Shown here piece after piece: positions 42,745-58,084 of a stretch of 64,000 nt of DNA. Below the pieces are notes generated by a model. It did no database searches, had not been told where the DNA came from, and saw only the letters and a program-made list of their open reading frames with translations. The DNA comes from an uncultured bacterium (GTDB lineage: Bacteria > SAR324 > NAC60-12): positions 41,060-105,059 of the forward strand of contig CAXGMD010000002.1 in assembly GCA_964010765.1 (NCBI GenBank), in the 5' to 3' direction. Every line of letters begins with the position of its first letter. The stretch's first letter is position 1. Both the position numbers and the translations under genes were made by a program.

Positions 42745-45700
42745 TCAAATAATCAGAGAAATTCTTGGTAAGCGGTAAATGCGTTTTTCCTCACGAGCTA
42801 CAATTGCTTCAGCCACCCATTCTATCTGCTGACCTACCTCCGTCTTCTCCAGAACTTCTACGAGTACGGTTAGCTCATTCGTTCCCGGCCGCACTTCTCC
42901 TCTGAATTCCCACTTCCATTCTGAATCTAAAGGCCATTCTACTTTTTCAGAAATGGATCGATGAGGTGTCCCTTCGGCCAATGCTCTCAAGGCTTGCAGT
43001 GCAGCTTCAATCCCTAAGGATCCTGGCATGACTGGATCGTCGTGAAAGTGGCAGGGATAATACCAATCTTGGTTGTCAACAAATCTGCGCCCAACCACTC
43101 TTCCTAGTCCTCTTTCACCCCCCTCAGGATCAAGTTGGACTTGATGAAGTAAATACAGATGGCCTAGTTGAGGGCAATCCAACCAGGGTAGTTCGGGTGA
43201 AGCTTGCCAATCTGGGTCTGGATATCTTTGACGCTGTCGTTCGAGCGCCCACTCTGGAAAATAGCCAAACAGGGCAACTCCCTCCAGAAAGGGATGATCT
43301 GGGGAGAGATCAGTACTCATTTGGTATGTGAAATGTTCGATGACCTGCCCATCAAAGCGCGTCATTCGGTCAAGTTGAACATTTGTCAGAATCTTTCGGT
43401 CTCTCAGTTCTGGGCGTTCCAATAGCTTTGCGTGCCCCTCAACTAATCTGAAGTGAAGATCATCATCTGGAAATTCAAAAATGCTTCCCATCCAAGCTCC
43501 CAAGAAACCACAGGGCTGGAGAGCGATTTCCAAGAGGACGCTTGCTGGTAAGGGCGCGATGCTGGTCCTATCTGAGAAATACCAGTCCATTTCGTTCACA
43601 TCGTATTCGGCAATCAAACTTGCTGGCTTAGAAAAATTCCTTGGTTCTCCTGATACTTCCAAAACTCTGGTAAGTAGCTTGAGGTCTAAGCAGGGATTTC
43701 GCTGAACAAAGGGTCTCGCATCAAAGGGGGCGTAATGCTCTCCAAAACACTTGGCGACTGAGCCATCAGCAAAATTCTGAATGGCTACCTCATCGAAAGC
43801 AGGTTTGGCCTTAGTGTCTGAAACTGTGCCGATTGAAAAATTAATCTCGTCTGATTTCTTCTCAACTAAACGCACCCCAACATCTCTAAAGTCCACAACA
43901 ATGCGATCTTCAACAAGTACATCAATGTTGGCGATCATGTAGGGTTCTGGATGCAAGCCAATTTCTTTGACTTCAAGTCGATAGGTCATCAAAGAATCTG
44001 AGGGAATAACTTGGCCCCGACATCGAACAATTTGGGGAAGGTTGAGGATCGGTTCAAAGCTGGCGTCTTCAGTAAGAGTCTGCAGTCCTAGGTAAAGCAT
44101 GTAGAATTGCAGCAATTGAACGCAGCCTTCTGCGATCAGCGAGCCAGCCATCACAGGATCCTTGTAAAAGTGGCAAGTGAAGTACCAGTCGTCCGGACGA
44201 AGTTGCTTCTCTGATTCCACAATTCCCAATCCCCAAGCGCCACCTTTGGAATCCATCTTCAGAATGCGATCATTCATCAGTAGTTGTTCAGGTGCCATCC
44301 TCAGAGAAGAATTTTTTTGGTTCTGATCATACTCTTCACCAAAGCATCTTGATGGATTACCTTGAACCAAGTGCAATAAGTCCACTCGCTCAAAAGCTGT
44401 CTGATTACATTTAAGTAGTGGAGAGAAATTAGTCGACTGAATCTGTTGGCGGGCCTCGATTTCTTTCTCGGTATGAATCACTCCCTTGCCCTGATCAAGC
44501 TCCTCTTTAGTAAAGAATCCTGCACAACCTCCATCCATTTTGAGTACCATCTGATCATCAACGAAGCACTCGTAATGGAAGAAAAACAGGAGGCTTTCGC
44601 CATGTCTGGCGAAGGAGTCGATGTGAATTTCATACCTTAGTGTTTGACCACCCCTAGGGAGGGCCGCCATGAATGTCATGGTGCAATCGAGCAGGCGATA
44701 GACCCGGTTTCCCCTATTTTGGAAATCAATGCCTAGATAGCTGATCAACATTAGGTCACACTGACCAGACTCAATCGCTACAGCCCAAGGGATGCGCTCA
44801 TCGGTAGCAAACCAAGCCTGTTTGGGGATGTCATATTCAGTTGTGATGCGGCAGGGTTTGAATTGGTGGGGCTCTGCTTCCAGTTCTGTGACTCTTGTAA
44901 CAAGCAGATAGGGATCTAAAGGCAACCGAACACAGCGTTCATAGCTGTCAATGATAGCGTAGTCCTGGCCAAAAACTTCAGCAATTCGTCCTCCAGCAAA
45001 CTCAAGTAAGTCTTGATGATCAAAAACTACTTTTTTCCCGGTGTGGTCAGTTTTAAAAGTATTCCCTGTGATTGTCCCCAAGGTTTTAGGTGCAGAACTT
45101 CGCTTAGCTTCCTTGCCAATGCTTAGAAATTCTGGTGAAGGAATGTCTTCTTGAATTGGCGAGATTTGGGTTAATTCAACTGGACGGTTTGATTGTAGAA
45201 GATTTTGAACCATTCCTCTAAAAGCAGTTTCTCTCAAGCTGAGGAAAGTTCGGTGTGCCTGATGGTGGCTTTGTGGGGTGTATAAATGAAAGCCGGAGGG
45301 TAAAGTCGGCTTTGATGAAATTTCTGGGGTGGCTGGTTTGTGTCCGACCCGACGCAACCAATTTTTCAATGCAGGTTCTTGCTGAAGCAAGTGCTTGAAC
45401 TTGTCAGGAATTCTCTCAGAACCCAGAATAACCTTTCGTATAAGTTGTTGATCTGAAATGGATTTTATCCCTGATAAGGGATTTCTTTGGAGATTGTTTG
45501 CTTGACTCAGAAGACCGCCAATCAATCTCAGCATTCCATTTGCTGCCCCACAATGTCCAAATAATTCCTGAACTCGCTCACTTTCTAATTCAAGTACATC
45601 GAGGGCCTGATAGATTTTATTAGAATTTCTGGAATCTAGGTTTTGAAGAACTATGGCTCCTCCGCCTTCCCCCAAAATGCTATCTTCTTTTGCAGAAAGC

Positions 45701-47751
45701 ATCCTTTCCAAATTTGCCTGAAGGTCCACAGCTACCAAAACAAGACCATCGAGATCCTCTTCGACAAAAAGCCATTTAGCGATTTGAAGGCATTTCTCAA
45801 TAGAATCTGCACCCATGGAAACAGTAAAAGCAGGCCCATGAAAATCATGAAGTGCCGCTATTCTGGAAGCCATCAAGTTGCCTATGGTACTTGTAAAGCT
45901 GTTTACGGTTTCGGGTTGAGGCCACGTCTGACGTATGATTTCAATTAATTGGGCTAATTGATTTTGTGAGTTTTCATCATGAATTAATTCACCAAAGGCC
46001 TGACGTAATTGAGCTTCCAACTGAAGTCTTCCTCGGAACTGGTGAATTTCAGCGTCAGTGTCCATGGCGATCAAAACCGCCACTTTACTGCCGTATTCCA
46101 ATCCTGCGTCCTGAATCGCTTTTTCAGCCAATTGAATCGCCAAAAGCTGCTGAGGAATGAGTTGTTCTTTTTCATGGGGAGGCAGTTTCAGTTCTCTTAA
46201 ATCAATATCAAATGATTCCAAGAATGCAGCTTTATGGACGGAAGAAGTCTCCATTCCTCGCCACCTTCTGGGAGGCAAGGGTCTAAACTGGGTTTCACGC
46301 TGCTTTAATGCCTCAGCCATTTTAATACGATTCGAACAACCCCCAAAACACGCTTCAAATCCAGTTATATACAAAGGTAGTTTTTGACCTTGAATCGATT
46401 CTTCAGAAGGTTCCTGAATCTGATCCTGTAGAATCAGGTGAGCATTTGTTCCCCCAAAACCAAAGGAATTGATTGCTCCAATGCGAGGAATTTCTGATTT
46501 GAGCCAGGGAGAGGGTGATCTTACGATTTTTCCTTCAGGTAGTTGTGGGTTTTCAATGCGGATCGAGGCAGGAATTGATTGGGTCTCAAAAGCACCCAGG
46601 ATTTTACCAACGCTGCTCATTCCAGCTGCAGTGAGCATGTGCCCAACATTGGATTTAACGGAGCCCAACAGAGGAAAATTTTCACCGAAGAAATCTGAGA
46701 TTGACTCTGCTTCAATGCGATCCCCCAAAGGGGTGCCTGTGGCATGGCATTCAAGATAGTTGACTTCACCTGGATTTAGCACGGCCTCCTCATAGGCTCG
46801 CTCATAGGCTCTTTTTTGGCCAACGGGGTTAGGGCTTAGCACAAATTTACCTTTACCATCATTGGACCATCCGCTCCCTCGAATCACACCTAAGATGGGT
46901 GGCGTCTGATTCTTTGCATCTTCAAATCTGCGAAGTAAGACCATCCCCACCCCTTCACTCGCATAAAGACCCTGGGAGTTTTTATCGAGTGGAGCGCTTG
47001 TCTCATTGTTCTGTGGATATGCTTGTAGCAGTGAGAACCCTGAGTGTATGAAAAAAGGATCAGCGGCGCTTACAGCTCCAGCAAGAACCCAGTCTACTTC
47101 CCCACTCCGCAGAGCCATGCATCCTAGCCGAATGGCATATAATGAAGAAGCACAAGCTGCATCAATTGAAAACGTGCATTCTCCAAGGCCAAGTTCTCTT
47201 TTCAGAAACTGAGCAGGACCACTGGCTGTTGAAAGATGTTGAATCGCTTCTCTTGAGCTTGATTTGGAAATTTCAGGCAATTCAAAATTTTCAGTTCCAC
47301 AAGCTTCGCGCAGTTCTCTTTCCCAAAACTCACGATAGAAATCCATCACAGTTTGATTGGATGATCTCGAGGGAAACGAGAGATTTCCGAGGATGAGGCC
47401 TCCGCGAGGGTGTTTGGCTTTTTCTACTTCGATACCTCCTTGAAAAAGAGCCTGTCTAGCAACTTGCAAGGGCCAACGATAAGACGGATCAAGATTTCTC
47501 CAATCCTCCTCTGTCCAGTCTACTGGTTTGACGACCTTTCGTTCATCAATATACCCCCCTTGTCGACAATAGAGTCTGTGGGGTGTCCCTCTCGTGGATG
47601 AGAAAAACTGCTGAGTTGGTAGAGAGAAATCTTCGTCAGTTGCTGTCCTCCACGATGGTCGTTCTTCATTGAGAAAATTAGCAAAAGACTCCAGTGAATT
47701 TCCATCAGGAAATAGGCACGCAAATCCAGTAATAGCAATTGGAGAGGTCAT
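42745..47751 (-). CDS. pfaC: PfaC-like PUFA-synthase subunit: KS - reduced CLF - FabA-type DH and pseudo-DH domains
   Basis: KS triad DAACASS / ECHATGT / VGHMLTAAG; second KS-like region without the Cys; WYFTCHF..DPVMAGSL and WYYPCHFHDDPVMPGSLG DH motifs. Confidence 0.85.
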   Translation of the reverse strand: MTSPIAITGFACLFPDGNSLESFANFLNEERPSWRTATDEDFSLPTQQFFSSTRGTPHRLYCRQGGYIDERKVVKPVDWTEEDWRNLDPSYRWPLQVARQALFQGGIEVEKAKHPRGGLILGNLSFPSRSSNQTVMDFYREFWERELREACGTENFELPEISKSSSREAIQHLSTASGPAQFLKRELGLGECTFSIDAACASSLYAIRLGCMALRSGEVDWVLAGAVSAADPFFIHSGFSLLQAYPQNNETSAPLDKNSQGLYASEGVGMVLLRRFEDAKNQTPPILGVIRGSGWSNDGKGKFVLSPNPVGQKRAYERAYEEAVLNPGEVNYLECHATGTPLGDRIEAESISDFFGENFPLLGSVKSNVGHMLTAAGMSSVGKILGAFETQSIPASIRIENPQLPEGKIVRSPSPWLKSEIPRIGAINSFGFGGTNAHLILQDQIQEPSEESIQGQKLPLYITGFEACFGGCSNRIKMAEALKQRETQFRPLPPRRWRGMETSSVHKAAFLESFDIDLRELKLPPHEKEQLIPQQLLAIQLAEKAIQDAGLEYGSKVAVLIAMDTDAEIHQFRGRLQLEAQLRQAFGELIHDENSQNQLAQLIEIIRQTWPQPETVNSFTSTIGNLMASRIAALHDFHGPAFTVSMGADSIEKCLQIAKWLFVEEDLDGLVLVAVDLQANLERMLSAKEDSILGEGGGAIVLQNLDSRNSNKIYQALDVLELESERVQELFGHCGAANGMLRLIGGLLSQANNLQRNPLSGIKSISDQQLIRKVILGSERIPDKFKHLLQQEPALKNWLRRVGHKPATPEISSKPTLPSGFHLYTPQSHHQAHRTFLSLRETAFRGMVQNLLQSNRPVELTQISPIQEDIPSPEFLSIGKEAKRSSAPKTLGTITGNTFKTDHTGKKVVFDHQDLLEFAGGRIAEVFGQDYAIIDSYERCVRLPLDPYLLVTRVTELEAEPHQFKPCRITTEYDIPKQAWFATDERIPWAVAIESGQCDLMLISYLGIDFQNRGNRVYRLLDCTMTFMAALPRGGQTLRYEIHIDSFARHGESLLFFFHYECFVDDQMVLKMDGGCAGFFTKEELDQGKGVIHTEKEIEARQQIQSTNFSPLLKCNQTAFERVDLLHLVQGNPSRCFGEEYDQNQKNSSLRMAPEQLLMNDRILKMDSKGGAWGLGIVESEKQLRPDDWYFTCHFYKDPVMAGSLIAEGCVQLLQFYMLYLGLQTLTEDASFEPILNLPQIVRCRGQVIPSDSLMTYRLEVKEIGLHPEPYMIANIDVLVEDRIVVDFRDVGVRLVEKKSDEINFSIGTVSDTKAKPAFDEVAIQNFADGSVAKCFGEHYAPFDARPFVQRNPCLDLKLLTRVLEVSGEPRNFSKPASLIAEYDVNEMDWYFSDRTSIAPLPASVLLEIALQPCGFLGAWMGSIFEFPDDDLHFRLVEGHAKLLERPELRDRKILTNVQLDRMTRFDGQVIEHFTYQMSTDLSPDHPFLEGVALFGYFPEWALERQRQRYPDPDWQASPELPWLDCPQLGHLYLLHQVQLDPEGGERGLGRVVGRRFVDNQDWYYPCHFHDDPVMPGSLGIEAALQALRALAEGTPHRSISEKVEWPLDSEWKWEFRGEVRPGTNELTVLVEVLEKTEVGQQIEWVAEAIVAREEKRIYRLPRISLII

Positions 47752-47791: not shown

Positions 47792-48172
47792 TTATTTGTT
47801 TTTTGGGATTCGCCAATGAGCGATTAGCCCGGCAATTAAGGTAAAGGTGAGTAAATAATGGACAGTTACAGGGAGTTTAAGTTCATTGCCCCAAAGAAGT
47901 AGAACCAGGCCGCTAATTACTAGACCGATTCCAGAGATCAGTTGTAAGGATCCAGATAGCAATGTCCACGAAAACTTTGTAAGTCTGCTTCGATGTGTAT
48001 TGAGATGATCAATGGCATACATGGGGAAAATCACAATGAAGAAGAAACCAACCCAGATATGCAATAGTGAGATAAAGAGATCTTCTTCATCAATAGGAAG
48101 GCTATCCTGCCAAGTCAAAATCAGACCCGTCACGATTAAGAAGCAGGCACTTGCAATAACAAGTCGTCTCAT
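47792..48172 (-). CDS. Small 4-TM membrane protein with intramembrane histidines (cytochrome-b-like)
   Basis: Four hydrophobic segments; H38, H56, H105, H119; ATGA overlap with the upstream KR-DH frame. Confidence 0.7.
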   Translation of the reverse strand: MRRLVIASACFLIVTGLILTWQDSLPIDEEDLFISLLHIWVGFFFIVIFPMYAIDHLNTHRSRLTKFSWTLLSGSLQLISGIGLVISGLVLLLWGNELKLPVTVHYLLTFTLIAGLIAHWRIPKNK

Positions 48173-50586
48173 CCCTTCGATTTGTTCTGAAACAAAGGTT
48201 TCAATTTTTCACTGAAGGTTACCGCAACTCCTTCAAGACGAAGCACACAATTGTTCGATTCATCCAAGAAGACCAAATTGGCAAGCAGTTGAGAGGTTCC
48301 TGACAGTTTTTCGTCCTCAATCTTGATCTTGTATTTAGAACTTCGGAGAGGAGCGAGAAATGAACCGCTTTCAATCGACAACGGTAGGCTTGGTAAGTTC
48401 GTCATTTCACGACCTTTGACTAGCATCGCTTGAAGTCCTGCATCCATCAAAAGTGGAGCAAATTGATTCCCAACCCAATTCTTGATTTTCTCAATAGGAA
48501 CTGGAGGCAGATTCACCTCAAAAGAACTAATCTCGTTCTTTGACAAAGTTGAGAGGACTTTGAAGTAGTTTTCATGAAAAAGAGTGCCATTTTCATACGC
48601 ATCAAATTTTGATGGCTCACAAGGAAGGGCAACAATTTGACGGGTTGGTTTAGGCGCAGAAGCAGCTAAGAAAACCTCTACTTGATAGTGTTGTTTAGTG
48701 AGTGATTTCTTCTTCTGTAAGCTTTGTAAAGCAACACTGATTTGAATCGTTCCATCAGATTCGCTTGTAAAACTGCCCTTGATGGTAAAAGAATGTGAGA
48801 TCTGTTCATCAAATCGGAGTCCCTGAAGAACTTTAAAGTTTTGAAATTTTTGGACTTTGTAGCCTTGATAGTGATCCTCTGACGCTCTGAGAAGCAAAGC
48901 CAGTGCGTAGGTCGCTGGCAGAACAGGAACGCCTCCTATTGAGTGATTTGTGAAAAGAGTGTTGTCTTCGAGTTTGAGGAAAATCGACTCTTCCCAATTT
49001 TCTGCGGAAATGGGTAAATCTTTTCCCCGAATATCGTTACCAACGACAAAAATTGGTGAAGGAAATTGATCATTGCTTAATGCTGTTTCTGCAAAGAGCT
49101 TAGCTCCTTCTCCCCTCGGGATTACTTGAACCCCTCTCTGCTGAAAAAGTTTTTTCAAATTCTCATCCACCATTCCCCCATCCCAAGGACCCCAATTGTA
49201 ACTGACCACCTTGATGGTCGGATGCTTTCTGATTAGATCCCAAGCTATTTGATTGATCGCTTCATTGGCAATTGCGTAATCCGACTGTCCTGGATTTCCG
49301 AAAAATCCTGCTCCTGAAGAAAACAACAAGACATGGCTAAGTTTTGAAGGATCTAGCACTTTCCAAAGATTACGGAATCCGTTGATCTTTGTGCCGTAAA
49401 CTAGCTCAAAATCCTGAATCGACTTTTGCTCGAGTTTCCGGTCCGCAAGAACCCCAGCTCCATGAATCAGACCAGTGATCTCTCCATGTTGTTGGATGAT
49501 TGGCTTAATCGTATCTCCCAATGCACTATGATTGGAGATGTCTGCTTGAACATAAACAGGAGTTGCCCCCAATTCCTTGAGTTTTTGGATGGTAAAGTTG
49601 ATCTCTCGGCTTGCTTGAACCTGCTTGATCAAATGATTAACTAACTTGGGGGTTGCCTTCTCTCCTTTAGTTTTGAATTCATTCAGGACAGCTTCTTTTA
49701 AATCTTTGTCAGGGACTTCGGAAGCCCAGGCTGGCTCCTCTTCAAGTACAGTCCTTCCCAGTAAAATGAAAGTGTCTGGACTTAGTTTGGCAAGCGCGAG
49801 TAGGCAATCTGAGGTAACTCCTTTGGCACCGCCACTAACAAGCCAAACTCTGGATGAAAGAGGTAGTTCCTGTTGAGATAGTTGCGGGATATGAAGAACT
49901 CTTTCGTATTCCCATCTCTGGAGATTTTGATCCCAACCCACCTGATTACGGCTCAGATTTGGGTCATTCCATTCCAGCCATAACAATTCAGCAAACTTTG
50001 TTGATTCAAAATCTTTATGTAAATCAATAAAGCGCCCATGAGTAGCGACCCATTCAGCCTGAACGGTTTTTGCCAAAGCAGAAAGGCTTTGAGCAACTTG
50101 AAACGATCCATTCTCAAAGGAACCAAGATTTCCAGATCCTTGAGTTACATATAATACAGGGCCTTCTGTGGCTAACCTACTCTTTATGGCACCAGAAAAA
50201 ATCAAAGCATGTTGAAGCCAGATATCACCATCATAATCCAGTTCTTCTTTAGATCCAATCATCCTGGGATGTAACCAGATAACACCTTTGAAAAGCTGGT
50301 TACCTTCAAGAATGCTGTTGAGTTCTTCTTTTAGACTCATTGCATCTTCATGTTGATTCCAATCAATTTGCTTCATAGAAAGAGAATCAATCTTAAAGCC
50401 CTTTGATTCCCATAGTTTTTTGATTGCACTTAGATGGTCAGCATCATTTTCTACCACTAAGACAGAACCGACTTGTCTGGAGATTTGATGTGGAGGAGGT
50501 ATCGGAGTGAGGACTGCCCAACCAAGTTCGAGTTGGGTGTCTTCAGAATTCAGAAGTTTTTTTTTGGAGGATCCGCGGAAAAGGTC
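48169..50586 (-). CDS. pfaA: PfaA C-terminal part (ketoreductase + PKS-type dehydratase); probably reached by -1 frameshift from the upstream ORF
   Basis: VSGGAKGVT, HGAGVLAD, FFGNPGQSDYAIANE, WGPWDGGMV; HSIGGVPVLP and DAGLQ; frame is stop-free from 50586, across the A9 run; no SD before GTG 50457. Confidence 0.85.
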   Translation of the reverse strand, partial: DLFRGSSKKKLLNSEDTQLELGWAVLTPIPPPHQISRQVGSVLVVENDADHLSAIKKLWESKGFKIDSLSMKQIDWNQHEDAMSLKEELNSILEGNQLFKGVIWLHPRMIGSKEELDYDGDIWLQHALIFSGAIKSRLATEGPVLYVTQGSGNLGSFENGSFQVAQSLSALAKTVQAEWVATHGRFIDLHKDFESTKFAELLWLEWNDPNLSRNQVGWDQNLQRWEYERVLHIPQLSQQELPLSSRVWLVSGGAKGVTSDCLLALAKLSPDTFILLGRTVLEEEPAWASEVPDKDLKEAVLNEFKTKGEKATPKLVNHLIKQVQASREINFTIQKLKELGATPVYVQADISNHSALGDTIKPIIQQHGEITGLIHGAGVLADRKLEQKSIQDFELVYGTKINGFRNLWKVLDPSKLSHVLLFSSGAGFFGNPGQSDYAIANEAINQIAWDLIRKHPTIKVVSYNWGPWDGGMVDENLKKLFQQRGVQVIPRGEGAKLFAETALSNDQFPSPIFVVGNDIRGKDLPISAENWEESIFLKLEDNTLFTNHSIGGVPVLPATYALALLLRASEDHYQGYKVQKFQNFKVLQGLRFDEQISHSFTIKGSFTSESDGTIQISVALQSLQKKKSLTKQHYQVEVFLAASAPKPTRQIVALPCEPSKFDAYENGTLFHENYFKVLSTLSKNEISSFEVNLPPVPIEKIKNWVGNQFAPLLMDAGLQAMLVKGREMTNLPSLPLSIESGSFLAPLRSSKYKIKIEDEKLSGTSQLLANLVFLDESNNCVLRLEGVAVTFSEKLKPLFQNKSKG

Positions 50587-53500
50587 TCAAGAATTTCACC
50601 AAGTGTTCTACGATCAGATAATTCATCGGCTTGGACTTGCAGATCTGGAAGGTTTTCTTGCAGAGCACCGAGGATTTCGACTCTTTTGATGGAATCAATG
50701 CCGAGGTCAGCCTCGAGATCCATGTTCAATTCCAGCATATCATTTGGATAACCAGTCTTCTCTGCGACAATATTCAGGAGAATATCTTGAATGTTGGAGG
50801 TTGAATTTTCTGAATCAGATGAGCTTTCGTTATCTGAGAGGGAAGGATTCGGCTTGGTTTCTTCGGGTTGAAGAATAGTTAAAATCTGTCCCAAAGTTCT
50901 TTGCTCGGCTAGTTCATCAGCTTGGACTTGCAGATCTAGAAGTTTTTCTTGGAGTGCGCCAAGGATTTCAACTCTTTTGATGGAGTCAATGCCAAGGTCA
51001 GCTTCTAAGTCCATATCTAGTTCCAACATTTCTGTCGGATAGCCAGTTTTTTCTGCAACGATTTCAAGGAGTACAAGATGAACTGAGCTTGTGGCACTGG
51101 TTGTTTGGGAGGCAGATCTGGTGGATGTTTCAGAGTGTGAGACCCTGACTTCAGGTGCAGTCTGAGGTGCCGATATTGTGGTGTTTGATACGGGTAGAGA
51201 TGGTCTTATGTTTAGTGCTGGTGCGGGAATGAACTCTGTTGGGGTGGCAAATTTCGGTATCACCTCTGACTTAACTGGAGTTTCTGGTGAAACACTACTT
51301 AATGAAGTCATTCTCGGCATTTGGCTAACATTACCTTCAGCAGTAAGGCCCCATTGCAAGGCGATTTGTGTTTGTTCGCTCTGTCCCTTTAGATATTGTT
51401 CGTGAATCTTAAGCGTTTCCTGTTGGTGGTGATGGAACCATTGTAGATTTTGTTGAACGCCTGTGGGCAAATCAGTCAACTTACCTTCAGAATCATGGCT
51501 AAACTGTTGAAGTACTTGCCAAAAAGCTCGAGCGTATTCCATCTGTTGGGCTAGATACTGTTGGTGCGTTCTGAGTACCTCTTGTTGATGCCGGTAGAAG
51601 TCCTGGATGGGATGGTAGTTAGACGTGTCTTGATCTTTATTATTCACTGGATTGTTCGTCAATGTTTGTGGGGTTGGAGGGGGACTCGTTTTTTCGCTGG
51701 TCTTTAAGTTGGGCTTTGCCCCTTCTAACGAATCATTGGGTTCGTGTGCAGAGGTTCTTTTCAAACTTTGGATTTCGCAATCATTCCCAATGAACTTTGC
51801 AAATTCTGACTGGGTTGCCTCACTAACATAGTTGCCCCCATGTAATCGGACATTCGCTTTGGAGGGACTGGTCACAAAGGACTGATATTCCCGTTGATGA
51901 GGATCTAAATTTGAGAGTGATAAGCCCAAAACCTGGAGTTGAACATAGGCTTCCCGAAACTGGCGTGAACTCTCTTCTTTTGGATTTGGATTTAATGCAA
52001 TTGCATAAATCTCTTTGCCTTGGAGGATGTTCTCTGTGAGTTTTGTTAGCACATTCTTGGGTCCGAATTCGATAAATACACGAGCTCCTGCTTCGTATAA
52101 GTTTTCAATTTGTTGTTTGAATCGAACGGACTCCAAAATGTGCGCTTGCAGCATTTCTTTGATTTTAACCGGTTCTGTAGGATAGGCCTTTGCCGTTTGA
52201 TTTGAGAATACTGGAACCCTGGCTCTATTGAATTTGCAGCTTTGGATGGCTTCTGAAAAAGGTTTTTGGGCATGATCCACTAGAGGAGTGTGAAACGCTG
52301 CAGAAACGGGGAGTGAGACAACCGAAAACCGCTTTGATTTAAAGAATGCAAAAGCTTTTTCGATCTGATTTTTGGGTCCAGCGACCACAACTTGCTTGTT
52401 CGAATTGAAATTGGCGACTTTCAAATCTGGAAAGTCTTCCAAGAGTTCCTCAACTGTATCTATCTTGCCCATCACCGCCATCATGGTTCCAGCGTCAAAA
52501 TCTGGATCATCTGGCGCAGCCATAGCTTTACCTCGTGCTACAGCCAATCTGTGATAGTCATTGTCGTTGATTACTCCGGCTGCCCAGAGAGCACTTAATT
52601 CACCGAAGCTGTGCCCAGAGGTGAAATCCACTTGTAACCCTCTTGCTTGCAGCAACCGGAACATTCCTCCACTCAGAGCACCAATCGCAGGTTGAGCATT
52701 CTCAGTTTTTTGGAGATGTAGGTTCTGAGTCTCTTCTTCATTTTCCTCAAAACTTGAGATGGCAAAGACGAGTTTCGAAAGTGGATCTCTCTCATTTTCT
52801 ACAAAGATCTGATCCATTTCTTGAAGGTCAGATTGGATTTCGGGGAATTCAAGGAAAAGCTCTCGACCCATTTGCAGATATTGGGACCCTTGCCCACAAA
52901 ACAAAGCTGTAACTTTTCCCTCACAATCCAACCCTGACTGCCGATAGAAAAGACCAGACTTTTGGCTCCATTCAAGGTTTTCAGGTTCTTTTTCCCAAGT
53001 AATTAGGGCTTCTTGTAAGGCTTGGATCGATTCTTTAGGGGAGTCTGATACAAATCCTAATCGGGCATGATCCTTAGCTGGTGGCGTTGCCTGGTTACCC
53101 TTTTCTAAGAGATCCTTTTGGCCTATCTGTGGTGTTGAAGAGAGTTGATTTAATAGGGTATTACACAGTTCTTGGAGTTCTGCCGGATTCTCTGCGGAAA
53201 GCAGAACAGGCTGTGGAGCTCGATTCAACCTGTAAGCGGTCAATTCAGTTTTATGCTCTTCCAAAATAAAATGAAAATTACTTCCACCAAAACCGAAAGC
53301 GCTGACACCTGCCCTCCTTGGCTCTGGCCCCCTGATCCAAGGTCTTGATTGCTTGCAGAAATAGAAGGGAGTTTCGCTTAATCTCAGATCTGGATGGGGA
53401 GTTTCCAGTTGATTGAGGGGGGGAAGAATTTTGTGATGAAGTGAAAGCGCAATTTTTATAAACCCTGCTACACCAGCTGCAGCCTTTGTATGACCAATTT

Positions 53501-54659
53501 GGGCCTTGACCGTACCCAAGGCAATCTGGTTTCTCTGCTCTGAAGCGTAAGCAGTCCTGAGTCCAGAAAACTCTGTAATATCACCTGCCTTAGTCCCTGT
53601 TCCGTGTGCTTCTATCAGTCCAATTTCTGAATTATTTTCTATATTGGCATCAGACTGAGCCCTTTGGATAGCTAAAACCTGACCCTCTTCCCTGGGAGCA
53701 TAGATGCTTTTAAACCTTCCATCACTTGAGGAACCAACACCAATAATTTTAGCATAGATACGATCACCATCGCGTACTGCGTCTTCCAAGCGCTTCAAAA
53801 CAACCAAGCCTAACCCTTCACCGATCATTATGCCTTCCGAATTTTTATCAAAAGGCTGGACCTGATCACGTTTAGTGAAGGCGGGTGTTTTACTGAAACA
53901 CATATACATAAAGGGGGAGTTATCTGTGTCAACTCCACCAGTCAGCATTACATCACATCGTCCTTCCCTGAGTTCGGAAATGGCCATCTTCATCGCAGCC
54001 AAGGAACTTCCACAAGCAGCGTCTACAACACAATTAGTGCCTCCAAGATTAAGCCGATTGGCTACTCTTCCAGCAATCACATTCCCAAGGAGTCCTGGAA
54101 ATGAATTCTCCTCCCACCTGACGTAGGCAGACTTAAATCGTTTAACTAGTTCTTCAGAGGTGTCTTGTTCAAGACCCGCACTAGAAAGAACTGATCTCCA
54201 GATAGGTTCTTGTAGCCGAGAAGTCAAAGAACCCATCAACTTCTGTCCGCCACAAACTCCAAGAATGATTCCAGTTTGAGATAATATTCGTGATTCTTCT
54301 TCCCCAATCCCAGCATCTATCAGAGCTGTTTTTGCTAAGATCAGGGTTAATAGCTGTGATGAGTCAGTGACTTCAAGAATGTTTGGAGGAAGACCAAAAT
54401 CCAACGGATTGAAATCAAGTTCTGGAACAAATCCGCCCTTCTTACAGTAGATTTTGTCTGGTTTGCTTGGATCAGGATCGTAGTAATCTTCAAGATTCCA
54501 TCGATTCGAAGGAACCTCCTCAAGGAAATCATTACCTGAGAGAATGTTGTTCCAATAACTCTGGAGATCTTTTGCACCAGGGAATAGCGCGGAAAGTCCA
54601 ACAACTGCAATCGGGGAGTCAGCCAAGCGATGGGATTTACTAGAACTCTTGAGGGACAT
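50550..54659 (-). CDS. pfaA: PfaA N-terminal part: KS - malonyl AT - 2x ACP
   Basis: DAACGSS, EAHGTGT, IGHTKAAAG; GQGSQY, GHSFGE, SAAFHT; two KTGYP..ML...DLEADLGIDSIKRVEIL ACPs. Confidence 0.9.
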   Translation of the reverse strand: MSLKSSSKSHRLADSPIAVVGLSALFPGAKDLQSYWNNILSGNDFLEEVPSNRWNLEDYYDPDPSKPDKIYCKKGGFVPELDFNPLDFGLPPNILEVTDSSQLLTLILAKTALIDAGIGEEESRILSQTGIILGVCGGQKLMGSLTSRLQEPIWRSVLSSAGLEQDTSEELVKRFKSAYVRWEENSFPGLLGNVIAGRVANRLNLGGTNCVVDAACGSSLAAMKMAISELREGRCDVMLTGGVDTDNSPFMYMCFSKTPAFTKRDQVQPFDKNSEGIMIGEGLGLVVLKRLEDAVRDGDRIYAKIIGVGSSSDGRFKSIYAPREEGQVLAIQRAQSDANIENNSEIGLIEAHGTGTKAGDITEFSGLRTAYASEQRNQIALGTVKAQIGHTKAAAGVAGFIKIALSLHHKILPPLNQLETPHPDLRLSETPFYFCKQSRPWIRGPEPRRAGVSAFGFGGSNFHFILEEHKTELTAYRLNRAPQPVLLSAENPAELQELCNTLLNQLSSTPQIGQKDLLEKGNQATPPAKDHARLGFVSDSPKESIQALQEALITWEKEPENLEWSQKSGLFYRQSGLDCEGKVTALFCGQGSQYLQMGRELFLEFPEIQSDLQEMDQIFVENERDPLSKLVFAISSFEENEEETQNLHLQKTENAQPAIGALSGGMFRLLQARGLQVDFTSGHSFGELSALWAAGVINDNDYHRLAVARGKAMAAPDDPDFDAGTMMAVMGKIDTVEELLEDFPDLKVANFNSNKQVVVAGPKNQIEKAFAFFKSKRFSVVSLPVSAAFHTPLVDHAQKPFSEAIQSCKFNRARVPVFSNQTAKAYPTEPVKIKEMLQAHILESVRFKQQIENLYEAGARVFIEFGPKNVLTKLTENILQGKEIYAIALNPNPKEESSRQFREAYVQLQVLGLSLSNLDPHQREYQSFVTSPSKANVRLHGGNYVSEATQSEFAKFIGNDCEIQSLKRTSAHEPNDSLEGAKPNLKTSEKTSPPPTPQTLTNNPVNNKDQDTSNYHPIQDFYRHQQEVLRTHQQYLAQQMEYARAFWQVLQQFSHDSEGKLTDLPTGVQQNLQWFHHHQQETLKIHEQYLKGQSEQTQIALQWGLTAEGNVSQMPRMTSLSSVSPETPVKSEVIPKFATPTEFIPAPALNIRPSLPVSNTTISAPQTAPEVRVSHSETSTRSASQTTSATSSVHLVLLEIVAEKTGYPTEMLELDMDLEADLGIDSIKRVEILGALQEKLLDLQVQADELAEQRTLGQILTILQPEETKPNPSLSDNESSSDSENSTSNIQDILLNIVAEKTGYPNDMLELNMDLEADLGIDSIKRVEILGALQENLPDLQVQADELSDRRTLGEILETFSADPPKKNF
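50557..50565 (-). other. A9 slippery run at the pfaA frame junction
   Basis: Minus strand CCA AAA AAA AAC TTC TGA; the -1 frame continues into KR-DH. Confidence 0.7.
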
Positions 54660-54685
54660 TAAAAAAACTCAATTCTGGCGTTCAT
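54659..54685 (-). CDS. Candidate 8-aa leader ORF MNARIEFF, stop overlapping the pfaA start
   Basis: Minus strand CAGGAGG-AAA-ATG AAC GCC AGA ATT GAG TTT TTT TAA TG. Confidence 0.4.
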   Translation of the reverse strand: MNARIEFF

Positions 54686-54855
54686 TTTCCTCCTGGAAAT
54701 GCCTGGAATATGGCGAGAAGAATGCCAAGGTTTGCAAATAAGATTCCCTAAGCTTCTCTAAATATGATTCTGAAACAGGCAGACTTATCAATTCGAATCT
54801 AAAAAATTAATCATAAGCCAATTCAGAATAAAAGACTTGGTAACGGATTAACGCT

Positions 54856-54889
54856 TTAATTAATAATTCTAATTAATTAATAATTCTAA
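54856..54889. repeat. Perfect 17-bp tandem duplication TTAATTAATAATTCTAA x2
   Basis: Read directly in the pfaA / response-regulator divergent intergenic region. Confidence 0.75.
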
Positions 54890-56054: not shown

Positions 56055-57039
56055 ATGACCCGTCAGCATTTCCAGCACCCGAACGCAAGCAACAGAATCA
56101 TTGTCCGTGCAAAGATTTTGAACAAAGGCACTCCAATGATAGCCTTAACGCGTAACATCTCTGATCTTGAGGGGATTCTTAGCGCAATTGATGTCGTTAG
56201 ACCTGCAAATGATGGAATCATTAGAGACTTCAATATTGACACCGAGGGGGTAGAACACATTCAGGCAATTCTTCAGATGATGCAATCTCAACCAGGAGAA
56301 GAATACATTAGTCACTCTGATCAGACATTCTTAATTCACCTTGGGGGTAAGATCGAAATTCAGAATCGTGCACCGATGAGGATATAAGTTGGTGATGACT
56401 GGAATAGGTGCAGCGGGTACAGCATGCGCAAAAATGATTGCGCAATTGGGTGTTAAGAACATTGTGGGTTGTGATATTGATGGAGCAGTCGTCCCTGGGG
56501 AGCAATTTGAGCATTCTGGAAAGCAATGGTTTGCAGATAACACCAATCCAAACTCCGAAAGTGGAAGTGTACATGATGTGATCAAAGGAGCAGACGTTTT
56601 CCTCGGAGTCTCAGCTCCAAACGTCATAAACTCATCTGACGTTCAGGCAATGGGGAAAGATCCAATAGTCTTTGCCATGGCTAATCCAGATCCAGAGATA
56701 ATGCCTGAAGAAGCAGAACCTTTCGCAAAAATTGTGGCGACAGGAAGAAGTGATTATCCAAATCAAATAAATAATGTACTTTGCTTCCCAGGCTTATTTA
56801 AAGGTGCTTTCAGCTGTTTAGCCAGAACAATCAAAGAAGAAATGAAACTAGCAGCTGCAAAGGCTATCGCAGCAAGTGTTCCAGAAGAATTTCTTCAAGT
56901 TGACTACATCATACCTACCATTTTCGATTCTTCAGTTACTCAGAATGTGGCGAGGTCAGTCAGAGACGCTGCCATTGCAAGTGGAGTGGCTCGGAGAGAA
57001 CTTGTTATAGAAATGAATCAAGACGCTCCAGGCGAATAA
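56055..57039 (+). pseudogene. ACT-domain malic enzyme with a large internal deletion
   Basis: 5' part ends ...SDQTFLIHLGGKIEI; junction near 56375-56390 jumps out of frame to GIGAAG...FLGVS...FAMANPDPEI...ATGRSDYPNQINNVLCFPG; the catalytic N-domain (YTPGV, EGK, NLED, DDQHGT) is absent. Confidence 0.85.
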
Positions 57040-57068: not shown

Positions 57069-58084
57069 ATGTTTTACTATTTAAAAAATTTATTAATAAT
57101 ACTATTACTAGTAAATATCGTCACTAACATCACTGCCCAACAAAGTACAAAAGACATAAAGTGGATTGACGGAGATGACTTTGGAAAGTCTGCTCAAATT
57201 CCCTATTGGTTTAAAGAAAGCTTTCTAGAAATTGAACTGGATATTGAGGAAGCATTAGAAGCAGAAAGACTTTTGATGCTCTACTTCCATCAAGAGGGAT
57301 GTCCCTACTGTAAAGCGACAATAGAGAAAAATTTTTCAGATCCAACAACCAAAGATTTTATTCAAGAAAACTTTGACGTTGTTGAAATAAATATTCGCGG
57401 TTCTCGATCAATTACGCTGCCAAATGGTGATATTGTTGACGAAAGAGCTTTTTCCAAACTAATGAAGATCCAATACACACCTACCATCTTAATTTTAGAT
57501 GATAGTGGATTAAATGAACCGCTTGAAAGAATGAATGGTTTTAGACCACTCCCTATCTTTCAAGAGACGTTATTAGTTGTTAGTGGGAAGGACGAGGAAC
57601 TAGGTTTTACATTAGAAAGTGAACCTAATCTTGTGAAAGAAAATTATTTTAGTGAAAACTATAATCTTTCAACCTTCACAGGCCAAAAACCAATAGCTAT
57701 TTTCATCGAGAAGAAAGATTGTTCCATTTGCCAGCAGATGCACAGAGAAGTTTTGCCAGTAAAGAAAACTACAAAGCTTTGAGTGACTGGCATGTGATCC
57801 AAATTGATGTGGATGAAGCAGATCAAGAAATCATCCTTCCCGATGGAACCTCCCAAAACATTGGGGATTTCATAGAAGGCCGGGAAATAGATTTCTTCCC
57901 AACAGTTATATTATACGGTCTTGGAGAAACTGAAGAAACTTTCAGGATGGATAGTTATCTTACTAACTACGGCGTCAAATCTACCCTACAGTATATTGGG
58001 TCAGGAGATTACAAGTCTCAACCAGAACTTCAAAGATGGTCTGATGAGACCAGAGCAGCTAGAAGAGCCGCTCGAGGAGGTTGA
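57069..58084 (+). pseudogene. SoxW-like tandem thioredoxin-fold protein with a -1 frameshift (or sequence error) at about 57751
   Basis: Signal peptide, P.WFKESFL, CPYC, YTPT, second CSIC; one extra T in GTTTTG fuses to ...FASKENY...FFPT...FRMDSYL. Confidence 0.75.

Follow-up and report, generated by a model that had tools for sequence, protein, structure and literature searches.

The window analysed here is a 64,000-nucleotide stretch of DNA from an uncultured bacterium of the SAR324 lineage (GenBank assembly GCA_964010765.1, contig CAXGMD010000002.1), and the gene in question is its pfaA, which lies on the minus strand, specifies subunit A of an enzyme resembling the synthases of polyunsaturated fatty acids (PUFAs) and is divided between two reading frames at a run of nine adenines (A9). 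The 5′ open reading frame (ORF1; 50550..54659, minus strand; assigned from the ORF list, Pfam and TIGR02813) encodes 1369 amino acids with the domains KS-MAT-ACP-ACP and the C terminus ..PPKKNF, and its 3′ end reads CCT CCA AAA AAA AAC TTC TGA. The slippery run itself (50557..50565, minus strand) contains two in-phase heptamers, A_AAA_AAA and A_AAA_AAC, and the frame-0 stop TGA that ends the short product lies two codons past it (50550..50552, minus strand). The −1 frame (48169..50586, minus strand) is open from 50586 to 48169, reads ..KKKLLNSEDTQLELGWAVLTPIPPP.., and from its entry at the A run encodes a structural KR subdomain, a catalytic KR and a DH domain, as identified with Pfam KR, TIGR02813 and an AlphaFold model. 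By arithmetic, one added base gives 2163 codons for the joined gene, with the predicted junction peptide ..DPPKKKLLNSEDTQ... An earlier note on this DNA had proposed that pfaA is split at the A9 run just past the last ACP, that the −1 frame reads without a stop from 50586 into KR-DH, that one extra A would give a 2163-amino-acid PfaA and that the run holds an A_AAA_AAC heptamer, and all of this is borne out.

Both halves match the PfaA family. ORF1 matched TIGR02813 with 1544 bits (curated cut-off 1010; model positions 2-1381) and the −1 frame matched it with 387 bits (model positions 1811-2581), while Pfam found KS, AT and 2 PP-binding domains in ORF1 and KR in the second ORF. Joined, the frames give the PfaA domain order KS-MAT-ACPn-KR-DH (Pfam, TIGR02813), and the catalytic motifs of KS, AT, ACP, KR (Tyr) and DH (His/Asp) are intact. 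Partner subunits are present: a pfaC-like gene with two KS-type stretches and FabA-like DH domains (42745..47751, minus strand; Pfam, NCBIfam) adjoins pfaA, and pfaD scored above its cut-off on contig C4.

The start codon annotated for the second ORF is a GTG at 50455..50457 (minus strand). Its pairing with the anti-Shine-Dalgarno (anti-SD) sequence is weak (−2.9 kcal/mol), in line with the earlier remark that it has no SD, and the codon is GTC in 3 of 5 congeners (G002, G008 and G004). The 32 codons before it are open across congeners, and of their 27 variable columns 14 fall at the third and 10 at the first codon position. Modelled with AlphaFold from the run onward, the −1 frame (pLDDT 89) has a confident strand at residues 11-19 (block pLDDT 92), corresponding to the first beta-strand of the KR didomain at 50500..50526 (minus strand), upstream of the only nearby start codon, and the GTG falls inside the next strand (residues 31-36). 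Against solved KR didomains the model gave Z scores of 34-35 with an rmsd of ~3 over ~430 residues, the alignment beginning at residue 4-6; residues 6-518 aligned to the erythromycin KR1 structure 2fr0 from its residue 1448. The −1 frame is thereby shown to code for protein from the run onward. Because the GTG is lost in three of the five congeners, lies inside a strand of the KR fold and has a weak SD, it is probably not a real start. Across 40 split loci no conserved start or SD was found for KR-DH: the first ATG, GTG or TTG is scattered, mostly inside the domain and without an SD. Where the junction was read, the codon overlapping the frame-0 stop is CTG, CTA, TTA, ATA or GTA. Termination-reinitiation and an independent KR-DH start were therefore rejected, there being no conserved start.

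The frame break is also present outside this assembly. Public sequencing runs from four studies (X1, X4, X8 and X14; three DNA libraries and one RNA library, X14) bridged the site as assembled contigs; X1 may be the source sample, and runs X20-X23 were left out because almost no query words occurred in them. The A9 run was unchanged, with no indel, in the contigs of all four, so that the accurate sequence called for over 50557-50565 shows A9 and not the A10 of a continuous gene. Of the 39 A/T runs of at least 9 in the 3.86 Mb genome, only that of pfaA sits at a frame break, and across congeners the −1 frame stays open and gathers synonymous changes. The earlier note had cautioned that apparent homopolymer shortfalls at 54661 and 57751 made sequencing error a real alternative. 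Neither caveat holds: no run has an indel at 54661, where the window also matches congener G005, and 57751 reflects genuine allelic variation, since X4, X14 and G005 carry one more C behind 57750 that X1 and X8 lack.

The names carried by close protein matches place the organism within SAR324. We searched 88 SAR324-phylum genomes with an ACP query, which matched 52, and could read the junction in 49: in G004 and in all of the 52 but four, whose loci stop at a contig edge. In 40 of these genomes the gene is split in −1 at A9-A11; another 7 hold A10-A12 at the corresponding place in an unbroken frame, and 2 are plain. A run of A9-A12 is thus kept in 47 of 49; the signal is nearly fixed in two families. 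The upstream frame is hidden in G020 by an N gap and in G004 by the contig start; the motif and stop are the same in both. In congeners the run has lengthened by substitution with its phase unchanged (A11 in G005, A10 in G004). At the protein level, 108 of 109 matches that end soon past the last ACP do so in KKxx (many being near-duplicates), and of the members listed for the close protein cluster, each of the 8 that extend to the junction finishes in ..PPKKN[S/F]. No fused close relative occurred among the best 120 matches, whose lengths reach 2396 amino acids. The homologues thus keep the poly-A run and the frame break, and show no conserved start or ribosome-binding site for KR-DH.

Beyond SAR324, we kept 189 of 286 loci that were non-redundant, free of N and furnished with the post-ACP domain, as judged by a profile built solely from continuous genes; the others dropped out as duplicates, for want of the ACP pattern, for stopping short or for containing N (3 loci). 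Gammaproteobacteria, Bacteroidota and cyanobacteria all include split genes, and the signal is found in at least four phyla; one gammaproteobacterial genome (G723) was left unscored. A −1 change is needed by 55 of 58 split loci and a +1 change by three (L174, L219 and L252, with A8 in L252 and A10 and A11 in the other two). Run lengths in the 55 were A9-A11 in 46, A8 in 1, A7 in 5 and A4 in 3, whereas among in-frame genes 79 had a run of at most 7, 52 had a run of 9-12 and none had a run of 8. The floor of nine adenines is seen in all three codon phases, and 39 of the 46 loci carry 2-4 adenines upstream beyond what a ribosomal heptamer needs, the run beginning at a synonymous third base in 27. 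In all 46 split loci with a run of at least 9 the frame-0 stop follows within 13 codons, and in 23 it lies two codons on. In-frame genes that keep the run, which belong mostly to one cyanobacterial clade, meet a −1 stop no more than 4 codons on in 79% of 52 cases compared to 23% of 1456 control positions. A tree of the downstream domain implied 16 changes between recoded and plain states and 6 between split and in-frame states (149 of 189 rows, unrooted, quick method, long branches); it cannot separate repeated gain from loss.

In the Bacteroidota, 3 of 301 sampled genomes matched, and two loci (L146 and L147) were dropped for a missing ACP pattern. With a Bacteroidota query, 88 of 92 matches that end soon past the last ACP had KK in their last 18 residues, including PfaA of Aureispira marina (background 1.6% per 7 residues), and the related loci L053, L209 and L211 have A10-A11 with a −1 break. 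The Persicobacter plasmid locus, the one fetched of 7 plasmid records found, is continuous. Five continuous full-length PfaA proteins (P0154, P0159, P0172, P0176 and P0229, including that of Flammeovirga kamogawensis) have KKK or KKN just past the last ACP, and their genes are candidates for in-frame runs. Among cyanobacteria, hglE-like genes (L119-L142 and many of L228-L279) have GGT GAA AAA AAA AAG in frame, GGAGG just upstream and a −1 stop 2-4 codons on; in two such genes, L239 (A9) and L252 (A8), the frame is broken. Other split pfaA-like genes, whose runs are short at A4-A8 (L111, L156, L157, L254, L264, L270, L278, L282 and L286), have an in-phase heptamer, a close stop and stem-loops, an anatomy that makes them a probable −1 ribosomal frameshift version of the junction.

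With accurate contigs at A9 and homologues that keep the run and the break without a start, we consider it very probable that pfaA is subject to programmed recoding by one route or another, as the earlier note had proposed. That note offered polymerase slippage or a −1 ribosomal shift, and the run length points more to the former. Reasonably likely, in our judgement, is that RNA-polymerase slippage adding one A yields full PfaA beside KS-MAT-ACP2, so that pfaA would be a single gene decoded as two nested proteins. As the polymerase transcribes A9, the uniform 9-bp RNA:DNA hybrid could realign and one A would be added in a minority of transcripts; unslipped mRNA would give the 1369-amino-acid KS-MAT-ACP2, and mRNA with one extra A the 2163-amino-acid KS-MAT-ACP2-KR-DH. 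Both the slippage and the presence of the two proteins are what we infer from these data, and by analogy with tssM and Thermus dnaX the slippage rate might be 15-50%. Runs of 9 A or T are reported to cause efficient polymerase slippage (PMC5009743), and tssM shows slippage of both polarities (PMC4256274). We favour slippage because the floor of nine holds in all phases, because surplus adenines occur in 39 of 46 loci, and because pfaA has no credible stem-loop or SD. The three +1 loci also speak for it, since a −1 shift cannot give +1.

One rival explanation is that a sequencing or assembly error, or a recent pseudogene, accounts for the break, and the genome assembly does consist of 266 contigs, while congener G002 has a nonsense TAA in the last ACP where relatives have GAA (L003 ~1978). 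The identical A9 in four of four runs, the conservation of the break, its being the only one among the long A/T runs of the genome to lie at a frame break, and the open −1 frame with synonymous changes make this extremely improbable, and sequencing error was rejected on the first three of these grounds. Another, also raised in the earlier note, is phase variation, in which replication slippage would toggle A9 (off) and A10 (on) in subpopulations. Cyanobacterial run length does vary with frame, the downstream domain being identical in L239, which is split at A9, and in L246, which is in frame with A10, while L252 has A8, and G017 resembles an 'on' allele. However, the same state was found in all four runs (contigs would hide rare variants), 40 genomes would all need to have been sampled in the 'off' state with KR-DH intact, the listed cluster members all have the short ending, and the best 120 matches include no fused relative, so that toggling is hardly likely here.

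Several points weigh against slippage within one gene. The parts of Type D pfa clusters are published as two genes (PMC4882568), and if the same held here KR-DH would have its own start and act in trans, the A run being a mere lysine-rich tail. According to PMC5067506, AmpfaA (4671 bp) and AmpfaB of Aureispira on separate plasmids gave a total PUFA of 0.0024 units versus 0.22 units with Shewanella PfaA, a detectable product indicating that separate halves can work weakly in trans; stand-alone KS-AT-ACP genes without a run also exist (L048, L052). Two separate genes are nonetheless quite improbable: the 40 split loci share neither a start nor an SD, the codon overlapping the stop is not a conserved start, initiation at GTG 50457, lost in three of five congeners, would remove a strand of the fold, and lysine tails need no A9, comparable xKKx stretches in long ORFs being coded with a run of at least 9 in only 16 of 596 cases. 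The single RNA contig over the site (X14) has the unslipped length; contigs drop minority variants and library RNA may include DNA, and this argues only against slippage in the majority of transcripts. The loci are related, so that counts overstate independence, the in-frame group being mostly one clade, and the run is dispensed with in two SAR324 genomes and in 79 further loci. Moreover, every A9 run also contains an in-phase heptamer, 7 of 46 loci have just one spare A, and ten split loci have a run below 9, several with classic −1 ribosomal anatomy; the ribosome is therefore able to do the job at this junction. A −1 ribosomal frameshift on A_AAA_AAA or A_AAA_AAC, aided by the close stop and acting alone or atop slippage, would suit the in-phase heptamers at pfaA and the 55 of 58 split loci that need −1. 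Four GC-rich loci (L254, L264, L278 and L286) have only C_CCA_AAA or A_AAA_AAA and a long stem-loop ~7 nucleotides on (z −1.0, −2.8, −2.6 and −3.8), downstream folds with z < −2 occur in 9 of 38 split loci, and in the in-frame cyanobacterial loci the run ends in A_AAA_AAG with GGAGG upstream. Usually the 3′ stimulator of such a shift lies 5-9 nucleotides downstream. At pfaA the 6-bp hairpin CCCAAC/GTTGGG described in the earlier note does exist (50517..50537, minus strand; 18 nucleotides past the heptamer), but its role as stimulator is not credible: it is no more stable than shuffles (z 0.21 and −0.89, pseudoknots being outside the test) and shows no compensatory change in its 6 pairs over 4 genomes, and so, with no evidence of function from fold or covariation, it was rejected. 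No internal SD of note lies upstream of the run at pfaA (−3.3 kcal/mol; −6 is reached in 4 of 38 split loci). A heptamer needs 6-7 adenines, yet none of the 40 split SAR324 genomes falls below nine, though ORFs of the genome favour A7 (328) over A9 (15), and three loci need +1. We thus regard a ribosomal shift at this pfaA as unlikely, with slippage remaining the preferred route; the mechanism may differ by lineage, as it does for dnaX.

Other features of the window and of its relatives were recorded alongside. A 126-amino-acid hydrophobic ORF with no family match in Pfam or NCBIfam (47792..48172, minus strand; ORF list) occupies the expected place of pfaB between pfaA and pfaC and overlaps the pfaA stop. 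Upstream, an 8-codon ORF, MNARIEFF (54659-54695, minus strand), has a strong SD and an ATG, and its TAA overlaps the pfaA ATG after T7, making translational coupling possible; its start is GTG in G005 and lost in G002, and it has no indel in the four runs. At 54856, upstream of pfaA, a 17-base stretch is missing from X4 and X8, and the window has a short direct repeat there. On the plus strand, a malic-enzyme gene (56055-57039) is missing the catalytic portion at its 5′ end; in X4 and X14, contigs end loosely at 56379-56385, a hint that other strains have extra sequence there. A thioredoxin-like gene (57069-58084, plus strand) has a strain-polymorphic one-base deletion at 57750, being intact in X4, X14 and G005 and broken in X1, X8 and the window. 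Within pfaA of congeners G002 and G008 and of the distant G001, a second frame break occurs in the AT-ACP linker at GAG-AGG after an SD-like GGAGG (L003:844-870; L004 ~844-870 of the reversed locus, minus strand; L019:846-867; homologous to window ~51700). The unbroken frame seen in G000, G003 and G005 is regained if two bases are lost, or by a +2 hop from GAG to GAG; proteins P0004-P0008 end at this break, one cluster having 119 members, and the break is a candidate second recoding site. An internal start at a Met of the linker was rejected, strong SDs not being enriched there (21% of 57 versus 16% of 209 control ATGs).

To our knowledge, few cellular genes use recoding deliberately. The closest likeness is to dnaX, in which slippage occurs at 9 A in Thermus thermophilus and a −1 shift at A_AAA_AAG in Escherichia coli, and for which the two-ORF genes in GeneTack have A7-A10 (PMC5009743, PMC3711429). 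As with tau and gamma, one gene would give a short and a long product by a cut at a domain boundary with a poly-A signal; in dnaX, polymerase or ribosome acts according to lineage and either form can be the default, and pfaA-type junctions would be alike in this. Unlike dnaX, pfaA encodes a lipid megasynthase, and the cut parts condensing and carrier domains from reducing domains. PMC4256274 describes the Citrobacter rodentium gene tssM1 (A11) and the Yersinia pseudotuberculosis gene tssM3, where, as proposed for pfaA, a run just before a premature stop restores a C-terminal domain; in a relative, an in-frame gene is cut short by such a slip, and both forms and their ratio matter. tssM concerns two species, whereas the pfaA signal reaches no fewer than four phyla and is close to fixation in two families of SAR324. 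The canonical PfaA (TIGR02813; Shewanella type A) has the same domain order as joined pfaA, but in a continuous ORF without a run (e.g. P0230).

Two published arrangements resemble the junction. In Type D pfa clusters (Aureispira marina, Psychroflexus torquis) the KR region stands apart from pfaA, as here, and the AT is fused to pfaC, whereas no AT match was found in the pfaC-like gene of the window (42748-47751) with Pfam or NCBIfam; recoding goes unmentioned in the portions of these publications that were searched (PMC4882568). PfaA of A. marina ends in ..KKKILS like the split proteins, a comparison made on the protein end, and the start peptide given by the AmpfaB primer aligns just past the first conserved strand. 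A. marina may thus share the recoded junction. The second arrangement is the heterocyst glycolipid polyketide synthase pair hglE_A and hglF, which Anabaena PCC 7120 has as two genes and Calothrix 6303 as a single ORF (PMC11804610), and whose junction is the same as that of pfaA; the words 'frameshift' and 'slippage' are absent from the accessible part of that paper, and a 2025 preprint likewise handles the cyanobacterial split as separate genes. Cyanobacterial loci of this layout, to which we apply the hglE/hglF names by phylum and layout, keep A10, and unlike SAR324 pfaA most have the long form as default. In the literature searched, which did not extend to Ujihara 2014, Shulse and Allen 2011, other subscription papers and some supplements, we found neither recoding at the PfaA junction nor purposeful recoding in any fatty-acid or polyketide megasynthase.

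Both the split and the in-frame layout would give a short and a long protein, and because in-frame genes that keep the run have a close −1 stop, the sequences suggest that the short form is selected. Making both proteins may tune reductive capacity, as the earlier note suggested. More speculatively, the short form, acting in trans or within mixed dimers, might give each reducing module additional domains for loading, condensation and carriage and thereby set the ACP:KR ratio; such a role for extra KS-MAT-ACP units is plausible because a higher ACP number raises PUFA yield (PMC5067506). We put forward tentatively, as something that may or may not prove right, that PUFA-synthase-like enzymes are widely controlled at a recoding site past the last ACP that has so far gone unrecognised. 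On this proposal the short form would be a working subunit whose ratio is set by recoding, the default frame would have flipped several times, slippage on A9-A12 would have been swapped for ribosomal frameshifting in GC-rich hosts, and Type D pfaA/pfaB and hglE_A/hglF would be mis-annotated single genes.

Together, these comparisons support a programmed change of reading frame within subunit A of the PUFA synthase, conserved over a wide range of bacteria and at odds with the two-gene annotation. If this is true, hundreds of database PfaA entries would be half proteins, and their 'pfaB/KR' or 'hglF' partners would have false starts. It bears on the poor performance of the Aureispira arachidonic-acid synthase in E. 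coli, the second half having been cloned from a start after the conserved strand; if the two are really a single recoded gene, it would be understandable that they yielded so little when cloned apart. It also raises a new question for heterocyst glycolipid synthesis, and it would provide a second dnaX-like case, one junction being decoded by the polymerase in some lineages and by the ribosome in others.

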